Positions 32,122 through 35,677 of a DNA stretch of 64,000 nucleotides are shown in pieces (position 1 is the stretch's first letter; each line of letters starts with the position of its first letter). The notes under the pieces are model-generated. The model worked only from the letters and a program-made list of their open reading frames with translations. It had not been told where the DNA came from and ran no database searches. Both the position numbers and the translations under genes were made by a program. The stretch is from Synechococcales cyanobacterium VAR_4_metabat_354 (GTDB lineage Bacteria > Cyanobacteriota > Cyanobacteriia > Cyanobacteriales > Chamaesiphonaceae), in NCBI GenBank assembly GCA_031414775.1, contig JANOQI010000011.1, forward strand, positions 1-64,000, read 5' to 3'.

Positions 32122-32323
32122 GATAGGAATCTCAGTCTGATGGAGCCGGTAAAGCGGCACTCATCTTGACAAATATGTAGTGCTTTTGTAGTATCATTAT
32201 CCTAAATGTTTAGATAATGCTAAAATGTGTTTCGTTAAGTATGTGAATCAGGCAAAGTAGCTGTCACGAATGAAGCTCCGCTATGTTGGTTCTATTATTC
32301 TCAAAGACTATATTGTGATAAAG

Positions 32324-34033
32324 ATGAAAAATCACCTGTTGCCAACTACTCTCTTGGGTGCAACTGCCCTCGTTGGCTATGTCACACCAGCAGCAGCTTT
32401 ATCCCCAGTAGAAGTTCAGAGAATTGCTAAACAGCGTACCGTCCAGATCGAGGGATGTAACAAAGGCTCCGGCGTAATTATCCAAAAAAATGGTAATAAT
32501 TACACTGTGCTGACGGCAGCCCATGTGGTCAGTGACAGTGGCTGCGAAGTCATAGCCCCAGACGATACTAGCTATCGGGTTACCAAGGTAAATATTTTCC
32601 CCAATCAAATCGATCTAGCCGTAGTTAACTTCACCAGTAATAAAAACTACCCAGTTGCTAAAACAATCCGCAATTCTGATCGGATCGAAGCAGGTGAAAC
32701 TATTTATGTTTCTGGTTTTCCAGTCTCTACCGCTATTGCTAAATCCGTATTCGCCTTTGTCAAGGGAGATGTGGTCAGTAATGGTACTAAGCAACAGGAA
32801 AAAGGCTACTCACTGATTTACAACAATAGTACTTTGCCCGGATACAGTGGCGGCCCAGTTTGGAGCGATCAGGGCGAATTGATCGCGATCCACGGTCAAG
32901 GAGATATCGATACCAAATTACGAGATACGGTCAATGCCGATGTTCGGATTAAGACTGGATTCAATCTGGGGATTACCGTCAATACTTTTACCAAGCTTGC
33001 TTCTACAGCTGGAATCAATGGTTATGAGCCAGTGGCGATCGCGGCAAAACCCAAGCCGATCGATGATTTAATTGCTAGTGCCGTCCAAAAAGAACGCCAA
33101 GGTAACTATCGGGGTGTGTTAGTAGACATGGATCGAGCCATCACTCTGGATGCCAAGAATTCGCGACCTTACTACGGGCGGGGTCTAGCCAAGGCTCAGT
33201 TAGGAGATAACAAAGGAGCGATCGCAGACTATAACCGCGCTATTGCCCTCAATCCTAACTTTACTAACGCTTACCACAATCGTGGTTTTTCCAAGTCAGA
33301 GATCGGCGATGAAAAAGGAGCAATCAAAGACTACAACCGTGCGATCACGCTCAACCCGAATGATGACCAAGCCTACAATAATCGGGCTAGTGCTAAGTCG
33401 GAGGTCGGGGATAAAAAAGGAGCGATTAATGATTGGAATCGCGCCATCAACATCAATCCCAACTTTGCTTTTGCTTACCATAATCGAGCCATTGTGGAAG
33501 CGCGGCTAGGGAATTTAAAAAAAGCCCAAAATGATTGGAACCGCGCTCTTCAGATCAATCCTCAGTTAGCGCCAGCCTATAGAAACCGTGGCAATATCAA
33601 ATCTTTATTTGGAGATGCCAGAGGAGCTATCCAAGACTACAATCGGGCTATTTTTCTCAACCCTAATGATGCTCAAGCTTTCTACAACCGTGCTCATACC
33701 GAATCTGGGTTAGGCAATAAAAAGAAGGCAGTTGAAGACTATAACCGCGCGATCAACCTCTATCCCAACGATTTTCAATCGTACTACAATCGGGGCATTA
33801 CCAAATTTGAGTTAGGAAATCGTCAGGCCGCCATAGAAGACTACACCCGCGCCATCGCTATTAATCCAGGCTTTTCCTATGCCTACCATAACCGTGGGAC
33901 TGTCAAATCTGCTTTAGGCGACAAGGCCGGGGCACTCCTCGACTGGAGAAAAGCCGCCGAAATATTTAATCAACAAGGACAAGTAGCTAATTATCGCAAG
34001 TCGATGTCAGCGATCGAACGCCTGGGTTCCTAA
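32324..34033 (+). CDS. Secreted trypsin-like serine protease with TPR repeats
   Basis: Signal peptide; catalytic triad TAAHV / DLAVV / GYSGGP; about 9 tandem 34-aa TPRs (AYxNRG...GD..GAI.DYNRAI.LNP). Confidence 0.9.
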   Translation: MKNHLLPTTLLGATALVGYVTPAAALSPVEVQRIAKQRTVQIEGCNKGSGVIIQKNGNNYTVLTAAHVVSDSGCEVIAPDDTSYRVTKVNIFPNQIDLAVVNFTSNKNYPVAKTIRNSDRIEAGETIYVSGFPVSTAIAKSVFAFVKGDVVSNGTKQQEKGYSLIYNNSTLPGYSGGPVWSDQGELIAIHGQGDIDTKLRDTVNADVRIKTGFNLGITVNTFTKLASTAGINGYEPVAIAAKPKPIDDLIASAVQKERQGNYRGVLVDMDRAITLDAKNSRPYYGRGLAKAQLGDNKGAIADYNRAIALNPNFTNAYHNRGFSKSEIGDEKGAIKDYNRAITLNPNDDQAYNNRASAKSEVGDKKGAINDWNRAININPNFAFAYHNRAIVEARLGNLKKAQNDWNRALQINPQLAPAYRNRGNIKSLFGDARGAIQDYNRAIFLNPNDAQAFYNRAHTESGLGNKKKAVEDYNRAINLYPNDFQSYYNRGITKFELGNRQAAIEDYTRAIAINPGFSYAYHNRGTVKSALGDKAGALLDWRKAAEIFNQQGQVANYRKSMSAIERLGS

Positions 34034-34097
34034 CCAAAAGATTTTTTTGACTGCTATCTCAACCGTTCAAACGCCCTCTAAGTAGGGTAAGGAGCTA

Positions 34098-34125
34098 TTG
34101 CCACCACCATTAAATTTGTTATGAT
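34098..34125 (+). promoter_or_regulatory. Sigma70-type promoter of the small basic ORF
   Basis: TTGCCA(34098-34103)-N16-TATGAT(34120-34125), with an extended -10 TG at 34117. Confidence 0.6.
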
Positions 34126-34160
34126 CAGCAACAGTAGTTCATAAACTCAACCCAAGAACA

Positions 34161-34370
34161 ATGGCTAGAATGCTTAAGCGCTGGGAGTCACCGCGCAAAG
34201 AAGGTCGCAACGACAAAGGCAAAGGCGGCTCCGCCCGTCAACGACAGGTTAAAAAACAAATGAAAATGCTAAGGAAACGCCTGAAAGACCAAGGCCAATC
34301 CAGTAATCAGGGCAACAGCCCCCAGGGAGAGTTCTACACTCTCCCTTTTTTTTTGGACAATTTGCTGTAG
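34161..34370 (+). CDS. Small basic protein; candidate alternative ribosome-rescue factor expressed from non-stop mRNA
   Basis: 69 aa, K/R-rich, NDKGKGGS motif, own promoter, and an intrinsic terminator inside the ORF before the TAG. The function is an inference. Confidence 0.7.
   Translation: MARMLKRWESPRKEGRNDKGKGGSARQRQVKKQMKMLRKRLKDQGQSSNQGNSPQGEFYTLPFFLDNLL
34324..34354 (+). terminator. Intrinsic terminator located within the coding sequence
   Basis: Perfect 9-bp stem AGGGAGAGT-TCTAC-ACTCTCCCT followed by 8 further T; ends 13 nt before the stop codon at 34368-34370. Confidence 0.85.
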
Positions 34371-34408
34371 ATTAAGAATTATGCGCTTGCATCCCCCACT
34401 AAAAAATT

Positions 34409-35677
34409 ATGGCTCAATGGGATTTACGCAGCCTCTGGCAAACCTTGGTCTACTTTGAGGCCGTGCCGCTGCTCAAACAACTTCACCAGCTACAAGGACG
34501 AGCAATAGCCCCTAACCATAATTTTATGAATCAAGCAATTTTGGTAATTGGTGGGGTCGATCATCTCAGTCAACGAGTCGTTAAACAGCTGTGGCAAAAA
34601 GGCTATCATCCCTGTCTATTGGTACCTGCCGCTGAGCTATCGATCGCTCACCAACTTTTCCCTCAAGGCGTAGAAATTGTCGGCGGTGCTCTGAGCAGTA
34701 TCCCCACAACTGTCTGGCAGCAAGTGAGAGCGGTCATCTATTGCCCCGCAAGTGTTAACCAACCAGAACTGGATGCCCTAGTCCAACTTACCAATCAGCA
34801 TTTGCCTACCAGTAGCGATTTAGAACTTTTTGACTTCACCACAGCACAGACACCAGTGGCTCAAACTTGGGGGGCGGTGGATGATGTGGTAATGGGTGGG
34901 GTTAGTGCCAGTGGTCTGCAAAGTTCGACTAACTGTGCGCTGTTCACCGGCAATATCTCTACTGAAAACTCCGGCGGTTTTGCCTCGATTCGGACTCGTA
35001 ACTTTGAGCCAGCTCTAGATTTGAGCAACTATCAAGGGATTTCTTTACGGGTACGCGGTGATGGTAAACGCTACAAATTATTTTTACGCCCCAGCGAGCA
35101 GTGGGATGGTTTGGGCTATGCCTATTCCTTTGACACTAACAGCAGTATGGGCAACATCACCAATTTGCGAATTCCCTTTAGCAATTTAGTGCCTGTGATG
35201 CGAGCTAAGACGGTGCCCGATGCTCCTCCGATCGATCCCAGTAAAATTTCGGCTCTCCAAATCATGCTCAGCAAGTTTGAGTATGATGGCAACCTCAATC
35301 CCAATTTTCGAGCCGGTGATTTTGCCTTGGAATTATTCTCGATCGGAGCTTATGGCGATCGGATTCTGCCCCAACTGATTGTGGTAGCTCCCTTGACCAC
35401 CACCACTGGCAACGTTACTCAGCCTCTGGCTGGTAGCTTTAAGCCTTACACCACTTTGCAAATGGGTGTAGTAGTAGACCGCCCTGGTGGTCAGAATTTA
35501 GAGTTTGACTTACAAAAACTATCCAATGGCTCAGTGAGCAGTGAAGATCTGGCCGAACTTTGCGTGCAGTTACTCAATATTCCCACCGCCTGCAATCAAA
35601 CTATTAATGTTCAAGAAATTGGCCAGAGAGGGGTTAATACTTGGTCGAACCTGGTAGAAAAAGCTGTCCAATCCTAA
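34409..35677 (+). CDS. CIA30 (complex I intermediate-associated) domain protein with a degenerate NAD(P)-binding fold
   Basis: CIA30 motifs WGAVDDVVMGGVS, ENSGGFASIRT, RGDGKRYK and LSKFEYDG. Confidence 0.88.
   Translation: MAQWDLRSLWQTLVYFEAVPLLKQLHQLQGRAIAPNHNFMNQAILVIGGVDHLSQRVVKQLWQKGYHPCLLVPAAELSIAHQLFPQGVEIVGGALSSIPTTVWQQVRAVIYCPASVNQPELDALVQLTNQHLPTSSDLELFDFTTAQTPVAQTWGAVDDVVMGGVSASGLQSSTNCALFTGNISTENSGGFASIRTRNFEPALDLSNYQGISLRVRGDGKRYKLFLRPSEQWDGLGYAYSFDTNSSMGNITNLRIPFSNLVPVMRAKTVPDAPPIDPSKISALQIMLSKFEYDGNLNPNFRAGDFALELFSIGAYGDRILPQLIVVAPLTTTTGNVTQPLAGSFKPYTTLQMGVVVDRPGGQNLEFDLQKLSNGSVSSEDLAELCVQLLNIPTACNQTINVQEIGQRGVNTWSNLVEKAVQS

Follow-up and report, generated by a model that had tools for sequence, protein, structure and literature searches.

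We examined a small gene in a 64,000-nt stretch of DNA (hereafter the window), which comprises positions 1 to 64,000 of the forward strand of contig JANOQI010000011.1 (assembly GCA_031414775.1) of Synechococcales cyanobacterium VAR_4_metabat_354, a member of the Chamaesiphonaceae. The gene is a stand-alone open reading frame (ORF) of 69 codons with an ATG start (34161..34370; like all features of the gene described below, on the forward strand). It was identified from the ORF listing and its homologues, and its read-through form is a small basic protein. A candidate intrinsic terminator lies within the reading frame, ahead of the stop codon, so that the messenger RNA (mRNA) would end without one if transcription stopped there.

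Four parts could be distinguished in the ORF. The first is a conserved core (residues 1-47; 34161..34301), in which an extended N-terminal part is followed by a basic helix (residues 25-47), as judged by alignment, codon statistics and structure prediction with AlphaFold2 (AF2). The second is a polar, low-complexity linker (34302..34323), which varied in both length and sequence and contained no stop codons in per-gene scans. The third is the candidate terminator itself (34324..34354), recognized by stem scan and fold energy, with a 9-bp stem, a 5-nt loop and nine T residues. Its arms (34324-34332 and 34338-34346) form nine pairs, five of which are G-C, and the T run extends over 34346-34354. 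The fold of 34300-34356 had an energy of -21.3 kcal/mol, compared with -11.7 +/- 2.5 kcal/mol for shuffled sequences (z score -3.83), and none of 200 shuffles equalled it. The last part comprises the tail codons and the TAG stop codon (34355..34370, with TAG at 34368-34370), which are predicted to be missing from the terminated transcript and which vary among relatives. The T run ends 13 nt before TAG and base 34354 falls within codon 65; thus, a transcript released in the T run would encode approximately 64 residues and would carry no stop codon. The predicted fold also contained a second small hairpin (GGGC-AACA-GCCC, 34310-34321) just 5' of the terminator stem.

Upstream of the ORF, a sigma-70-type promoter-like site (34098..34125) could be identified with 10 of 12 matches, consisting of TTGCCA (34098-34103), a 16-nt spacer and the extended -10 element TG-n-TATGAT (34120-34125). 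Four promoter-like sites were present in the scanned region compared with 1.5 +/- 1.2 in shuffles, and a TGnTAnnnT motif was found at the equivalent upstream position in 53 of 88 homologous genes and in 37 of 116 from a phylum sample (both sets are described below). The stand-alone ORF and its protein sequence, the extended -10 promoter-like site, and the 9-bp hairpin with its U-tract inside the frame had all been reported in an initial annotation of the window, and each was present as described. The RNA libraries contained one 151-nt metatranscriptome contig from a relative (90-95% alike), which covered 34161-34288 and had adapter sequence at its end; this result covers four of the five runs found (shares 0.04-0.28), all of them in the form of contigs, and is uninformative on transcript 3' ends.

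A protein family widespread in cyanobacteria

To understand the nature of the gene, it is important to characterize its homologues. Out of 1074 candidates, 1073 were homologous at an expectation value (E) of 0.01 or below, with lengths of 66-112 residues; all named homologues were designated 'hypothetical protein' and none contained a Pfam domain. When 1.84 billion cluster representatives were searched with a profile, 451 matched at E <= 0.001, including 389 at E <= 1e-10. When one genome per species was considered, at least 491 loci were confirmed, which belonged to Nostocales, Chamaesiphon, Phormidium, Coleofasciculus, Leptolyngbya and others. Culturable carriers were represented as well, with Tolypothrix tenuis PCC 7101 and the strain deposited as [Scytonema hofmanni] UTEX 2349 among these loci and Chamaesiphon minutus PCC 6605 among the homologous proteins. 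When the phylum was sampled evenly, the gene occurred in 117 of 401 genomes and in 63 of 152 genera. Its distribution in this sample was uneven: it was found in none of 33 genomes of one family and in only 2 of 217 genomes of twelve other families taken together. A single match was observed in 116 of the 117 carriers, and the remaining genome (G187) had a weak second match (E 1.7e-4). It should be noted that the relatives are not independent, and no count across genes or genomes given here is a probability.

The protein sequence was highly conserved. In an alignment of 34 members, residues 5-42 were nearly invariant, and no variation at all was seen in 24 columns from residue 5 to residue 41 (LKRWESPR, G15 R16 N17, K19 G20, G22 G23, A25 R26, R28 Q29, K32, M36 L37 R38 and L41). 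On the other hand, the tails differed among members in both length and sequence. Among 88 distinct genes, the entropies of the first, second and third codon positions of the core were 0.41, 0.21 and 1.27, respectively, and pairwise codon differences were mostly synonymous (64437 compared with 21158 non-synonymous, approximately 3:1). The near invariance of residues 5-42, together with variation mainly at third codon positions, indicates that this is a real gene under selection at the protein level.

No previous description of the family could be found. The ESM Atlas returned only unnamed cyanobacterial clusters, with no usable match among named clusters, and a second protein search from a Nostocales member together with a cluster look-up gave only entries named 'hypothetical protein'. 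Pfam searches of the 34 members produced scattered non-significant matches (Syntaxin, DUF4202; best E approximately 0.01). Our literature search retrieved no cyanobacterial alternative rescue factor of such a kind, in agreement with what the initial annotation had supposed, and no paper containing the string KRWESPR. In a ribosome-profiling preprint on Synechocystis (10.64898/2025.12.20.695498), a term search of the text detected no mention of tmRNA, ArfA, rescue or non-stop, and its supplements could list a homologue. Thus, the gene family is widespread in cyanobacteria and was previously undescribed.

A reading frame kept open through the terminator

In a single genome, a terminator inside an open frame is not beyond chance. 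Using a strict scan of the whole host genome, in which the open frame had to span 64 codons or more and pass the T-tract, we found that 33 of 257 strong terminator-like sites fell inside such frames. Therefore, the argument must rest on the comparison of relatives. Most of the 33 sites (for example, C16:148361, C36:113785 and C54:97758) are probably hairpins in ordinary genes or antisense frames, and the list could conceal additional stop-less genes.

After removal of twelve duplicates from the collected loci (L001-L100), 88 distinct genes were available for comparison. A hairpin followed by a T-tract was present after the core in all 88 of them, compared with a mean of 2.05 out of 88 (maximum 4) in composition-matched shuffles and 6 out of 86 in upstream control regions. 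Here the first hairpin after the core was taken, since choosing the best hairpin anywhere had, for 2 of 82 genes, selected one lying far downstream. The in-frame stop codon started 3' of the hairpin in 88 out of 88 genes: more than 8 nt past it in 86 and at +6 in the other two, which are Chamaesiphon loci (L019 and L049) whose TAA is made from the end of the T run, 6 nt past the stem. In the first scan, with three exceptions among 82 genes, the linker between the end of the core (residue 42) and the start of the hairpin measured 21-82 nt. Between the end of the core and the end of the hairpin, stops occurred in frame +1 in 19 and in frame +2 in 78 of these 82 genes, whereas the coding frame was free of them.

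The hairpin appeared to be maintained as a structure. Its T-tract started in each of the three codon phases at similar frequency (29, 27 and 26 of 82 genes), which implies that the hairpin is not fixed as a peptide, and the 46 distinct 5' arms found among the 88 genes indicate that structure and not sequence is conserved. RNAalifold analysis of 69 hairpin regions recovered six pairs, four of them with compensatory changes; MAFFT had lost the stem register in this alignment, and our results are based on the per-sequence hairpin scans instead. We also observed that the 5' arms were purine-rich (GGGAGA or GGGGAA types) and the 3' arms pyrimidine-rich, both in the window (34324-34346) and in relatives. 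Such arms make TAA, TAG and TGA impossible in any frame, which is a reading of the sequences and not a statistical test. Stop-proof arms of this kind would make the open frame robust to insertions and deletions in the linker.

Considering that the 80 loci of the species scan had been ranked by alignment score, out of at least 491, and that such ranking could favour long open frames, it was necessary to repeat the analysis on the unranked phylum sample. This comprised 116 matching genomes besides that of the window, 115 of which were assessable because one locus (L232) runs off its contig. The terminator preceded the in-frame stop in 112 of the 115 genomes; 107 of these were recognized by script and five (L189, L206, L224, L237 and L238) by RNAfold and inspection by eye, the strict script having missed hairpins with longer loops or a mismatch. 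Four loci of one clade (L206, L224, L237 and L238) had tails that were alike past the T-tract (...LNIRTD..RRLL..., DNA TGAATATTCGGACAGAT), unlike the drifting tails seen elsewhere, which reflects either an overlapping conserved element or merely close kinship.

In the remaining three genomes (G199=L225, G266=L249 and G406=L251), an ordinary stop codon followed soon after the helix with no prior terminator. Two of them carry divergent members of the family (G266, E 4e-17; G406, E 5e-9), and KGKGG was lost in G406. The initial annotation had predicted that residues ~1-42 would be kept, that the tail would vary and that a terminator would always precede the stop, and had named a stop before the hairpin as the observation that would speak against its proposal. 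The prediction proved accurate in all but these three of the 115 genomes. The protein can evidently exist without the terminator device, and these three genes are natural 'core-only' versions of it.

The position of the stop codon past the hairpin was also informative. It ranged from 6 to 284 nt (median 46, mean 56.8). The same downstream DNA, read in its other two frames, contained 0.0556 stops per codon, from which a median of 37 and a mean of 54 nt would be expected; these expected distances are counted from 8 nt into the T run and agree with the observed values once the stop-free T run is added. Thus, the stop codon behind the terminator appears to be neutral sequence, lying where chance would put it. 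A frame that is held open as far as the terminator, with indifference afterwards, is what would be expected if the message normally ends there. Taken together, these data make it very likely that a conserved frame is held open across a conserved terminator, that the mRNA is built without a stop codon and that this design is under selection.

The same data bear on the possibility that the gene encodes a small basic protein of an ordinary kind, with nucleic acid or the ribosome as its binding target. In that case the terminator would merely overlap the end of the gene, and the full protein would be made untagged because enough transcripts would extend to the stop owing to ribosome coupling or weak termination. 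The 33 in-frame sites in the host genome and the three relatives with a normal stop after the core would fit such an explanation, and so would the suppression of terminators by nearby translation, which is described in the accessible part of PMC4824070. However, the lack of a stop before the hairpin over a variable linker (88/88 and 112/115) would be left unexplained, and the stop position and tail behave neutrally, whereas a tail that mattered would be conserved. We consider an ordinary protein of this type rather improbable.

The genomic neighbourhood was examined as well. In the window, the ORF is preceded by a trypsin-like protease/tetratricopeptide repeat gene (32270-34033) and followed by a CIA30-domain gene (34409-35677); the gene downstream of it had a counterpart at 3 of 87 other loci and the gene upstream of it at 1. 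The commonest neighbour family, which precedes the gene in the same orientation at 17 of 88 loci, is a candidate ORF with an HExxH motif (recognized by eye). Since no neighbour is constant, a leader role for a particular operon is unlikely. This is relevant to a further explanation, according to which the locus is a regulatory RNA element, that is, either a leader peptide controlling read-through of the terminator or a translated base-pairing small RNA. The locus has its own promoter-like site and terminator, which would give a transcript of approximately 220 nt, and the ORF spans the terminator as in an attenuator. Nevertheless, the downstream gene was not conserved (3/87), the peptide is conserved far beyond usual leader peptides with its variation at third codon positions, and Rfam gave no match at E <= 1 across 33000-35500. 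A regulatory RNA is therefore very improbable.

Transfer RNA genes were frequent neighbours in relatives. In 17 of 88 distinct loci and in 31 of the 116 phylum-sample genomes, although not in the window, the gene was immediately preceded by a tRNA-Leu(CAA) gene of the same orientation. The distance from its 3' end to the core was 33-140 nt in those loci (for example, L052, L062, L072, L075, L084 and L096). As this leaves too little room for a promoter in many cases, the mRNA may there be a 3' trailer of tRNA-Leu(CAA). In 12 of 116 genomes, tRNA-Gln(UUG) was located downstream on the same strand, approximately 110-380 nt past the terminator hairpin (L141, L146, L155, L159, L161, L162, L167, L169, L170, L180, L182 and L184). 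Three of these loci also had the upstream tRNA-Leu, and in L180 the open frame continued through the tRNA-Gln(UUG) gene.

Trans-translation and a possible role in ribosome rescue

The arrangement suggests a mechanism in which the stand-alone gene would be transcribed from its own promoter and transcription would end at the intrinsic terminator within the frame. Ribosomes would run to the 3' end of the stop-less transcripts, and the product of approximately 64 residues would be tagged by transfer-messenger RNA (tmRNA) together with SmpB (tag ANNIVPFARKAAPVAA) and then degraded, the protein accumulating only when trans-translation is saturated or lost. Accumulated protein would act as a back-up rescue factor: its KGKGG segment and basic helix would bind stalled ribosomes at the decoding centre and mRNA channel left vacant, and a release factor would cut the peptidyl-tRNA, since the protein has no GGQ motif. 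We infer that transcription terminates at the hairpin in vivo, that the product is tagged and degraded, and that the protein binds ribosomes and recruits a release factor. Gating of the protein by trans-translation appears probable. Whether it is a rescue factor, similar to ArfA and BrfA in its working and outside their families, is close to evenly balanced, and for the explanation as a whole, a trans-translation-gated back-up rescue factor, we see an even chance.

Several properties of the protein and of its host genome are consistent with this proposal. Residues 1-47 contain 17 Lys/Arg and 4 Asp/Glu (net charge approximately +13). AF2, run with an alignment of 34 rows, predicted a long basic helix at 25-47, where the mean predicted local distance difference test (pLDDT) score was 81 for the block 21-30 and 93 for 31-40. 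The N-terminal 24 residues were predicted to be extended (block means 75 and 64), and residues 50-58 and 67-69 had pLDDT values below 50. GGQ is absent from the 69-residue sequence, so that any hydrolysis would need a release factor; the three PF00472 matches of the genome lie elsewhere (contigs C10, C26 and C62). All components with which the protein would have to work were identified: tmRNA on contig C62 at c[9308,9702], with the tag given above, SmpB on contig C59, and genes for release factors 1 and 2 (RF1 and RF2, the latter with SPF). The gene arrangement is that published for brfA, with a terminator inside the ORF, as far as the available text of PMC6881298 describes it. Complex prediction for RF2 (21-row alignment) and residues 1-50 gave an ipSAE score of 0.00 in both runs, which, having been made without controls, is no evidence either way.

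The host genome also encodes ArfB, a protein of 137 residues with GGQ and a basic tail (C62 141372-141782, approximately 130 kb from the tmRNA gene); should the small protein be a rescue factor, this genome would possess three routes of rescue. According to the accessible part of a 2024 survey of 162 cyanobacterial genomes, smpB was present in 161, ssrA in 155, arfB in 90, arfA in none and rqcH in 161 (PMC11633108). Among the 401 genomes of our phylum sample, 59 had both ArfB and the small gene, 58 only the small gene, 55 only ArfB and 229 neither.

This lack of complementarity with ArfB is one of several observations that weigh against a rescue factor of the ArfA or BrfA type, as are the three genes with a normal stop described above. 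Homology searches pointed the same way. The Pfam ArfA model (PF03889) matched neither the protein nor anything else in the whole genome at E <= 1, nor any of the 34 members at E <= 10, and BLASTP against Escherichia coli ArfA gave only E 1.2. With hhalign, comparison with 17 ArfA sequences produced a single match of 14 columns with a probability of 1.5%, in which kEGRNDKGKGGSAR was aligned with RVEKNKKGKGSYMR, that is, the best match to ArfA lies at its KGKG(G)S motif. The KGG repeat model (PF10685) found nothing in the genome at E <= 1 and nothing among the 34 members at E <= 10. When the family profile was compared with all Protein Data Bank (PDB) chains at E <= 10, in which we assume that a BrfA chain was present, only Nop14 was retrieved (E 0.22). 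The motif precedes the helix in the cyanobacterial family, whereas it is near the C-terminus in ArfA. Finally, translation close to a terminator can suppress termination, as described in the part of PMC4824070 that was available, and a ribosome moving through the hairpin might give a read-through mRNA that bears the stop. The initial annotation had recognized the KGKGGS motif, its more N-terminal position and the absence of overall homology to ArfA, and Pfam, BLASTP and hhalign bear it out on these points. Of its broader proposal of an ArfA/BrfA-like rescue gene, the stop-less structure was indeed conserved (88/88 and 112/115); homology to these factors was not found, and the function itself is an interpretation.

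The main rival to a rescue factor, also named in the initial annotation, is a trans-translation-gated protein with a role other than release-factor recruitment, which would serve as a signal or brake when tmRNA capacity is exhausted, for example, in ribosome silencing or hibernation, in binding ribosomal RNA (rRNA) or tmRNA, or in altering RNA decay. All evidence for the stop-less design applies to it equally, and nothing links the small protein to a release factor. The only PDB near-match, at its non-significant E value, is to an rRNA-binding basic segment of Nop14, and half of the carrier genomes already have ArfB. However, arfA and brfA, which are stop-less genes, both encode rescue factors, as stated in the accessible portions of PMC6881298 and PMC6299226, and the best local match to ArfA was precisely KGKG(G)S. 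We therefore consider such a different role unlikely, though less so than either of the two alternatives discussed above.

If a trans-translation-gated rescue factor is nevertheless the correct explanation, it would fill a gap in the rescue factors known from a large part of the phylum, including the 58 sampled carriers without detectable ArfB. The combination of a conserved core, an open frame through the terminator and a randomly placed stop also provides a clear comparative signature that could be sought in other phyla. In its fullest form, the proposal would be that cyanobacteria have their own release-factor-dependent rescue factor unrelated to ArfA, BrfA and ArfT, produced by a stop-proof terminator switch upon failure of trans-translation and, in about a quarter of carriers, from a 3' trailer of tRNA-Leu(CAA), as a third independent invention of this fail-safe circuit and the first in a phototroph lineage. 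We put this forward tentatively, at somewhat less than an even chance.

Comparison with known rescue factors

Back-up rescue factors that depend on a release factor have been described in proteobacteria (ArfA and ArfT) and in Bacillus (BrfA). ArfB (YaeJ) is a back-up rescue factor as well, whose basic C-terminal helix enters the empty mRNA channel. It has its own GGQ hydrolase domain, whereas the small cyanobacterial protein has no GGQ. It is also worth noting that, in the available text of their report, the authors who described BrfA predicted that many bacteria have rescue factors yet to be identified (PMC6881298).

ArfA (YhdL), found in Escherichia coli and other beta- and gamma-proteobacteria, is likewise small and basic and is made from a non-stop mRNA, a property that in the cyanobacterial gene is predicted from the sequence. 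Its motif segment in E. coli is ...KNKKGKGSYMRKGK..., and the pattern N-K-KGKGS-x-x-R of ArfA can be set beside N-D-KGKGGS-A-R of the cyanobacterial family. In the latter, no variation occurs at K19, G20, G22 and G23, and at least 90% of members retain K21 and S24; a likeness over six residues does not demonstrate homology or a common binding site. As described in the part of PMC6299226 that was available, ArfA uses its KGKGS motif to bind the mRNA channel when this is empty. The resemblance of KGKG(G)S is thus at the level of a motif and could be convergent. The same source describes RNase III cleavage in addition to a terminator for arfA, while only a terminator was seen in the cyanobacterial gene. 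Annotated enterobacterial ArfA proteins likewise vary in length, from 69 to 110 residues, owing to their tails; here too, this is a sign of a stop codon on which selection does not act.

ArfT of Francisella and the ArfT-like KGG proteins also combine small size and basic character with a K-G-G-S type motif beside a charged helix. ArfT has KKGGSTNKK, and arfT lacks an internal terminator, according to the accessible text of PMC6299226. The ArfT-like family of Burroughs and Aravind is the KGG-repeat family, whose cyanobacterial members include alr1718 and proteins carrying a KGG repeat annotation (available part of PMC6514570). A term search of the supplement of this paper, as available, found neither four accessions of our family nor the name Chamaesiphon. 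The cyanobacterial family is set apart from ArfT by the KGG model and the published description.

A close parallel in gene design is offered by BrfA (YqkK) of Bacillus subtilis. In the accessible text of PMC6881298, brfA is described as a gene of 71 sense codons with a rho-independent terminator in its coding region, whose product of approximately 62 residues is degraded after tagging by tmRNA and recruits RF2. Synonymous mutations that disrupt this hairpin have been shown to render BrfA constitutive. The corresponding values for the cyanobacterial gene are 69 codons and approximately 64 residues, and both genes have the terminator in frame. Both proteins are basic, lack GGQ and are restricted to one lineage. 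On the other hand, BrfA has N-terminal helices and a positively charged C-terminal part, whereas the cyanobacterial protein is predicted to consist of an extended N-terminal part, KGKGG and one long helix; moreover, the function of BrfA was tested experimentally (PMC6881298, accessible text), and that of the cyanobacterial protein is a proposal. Should the proposed function be correct, a self-regulating stop-less circuit like those of arfA and brfA would have arisen once more in cyanobacteria from unrelated sequence.

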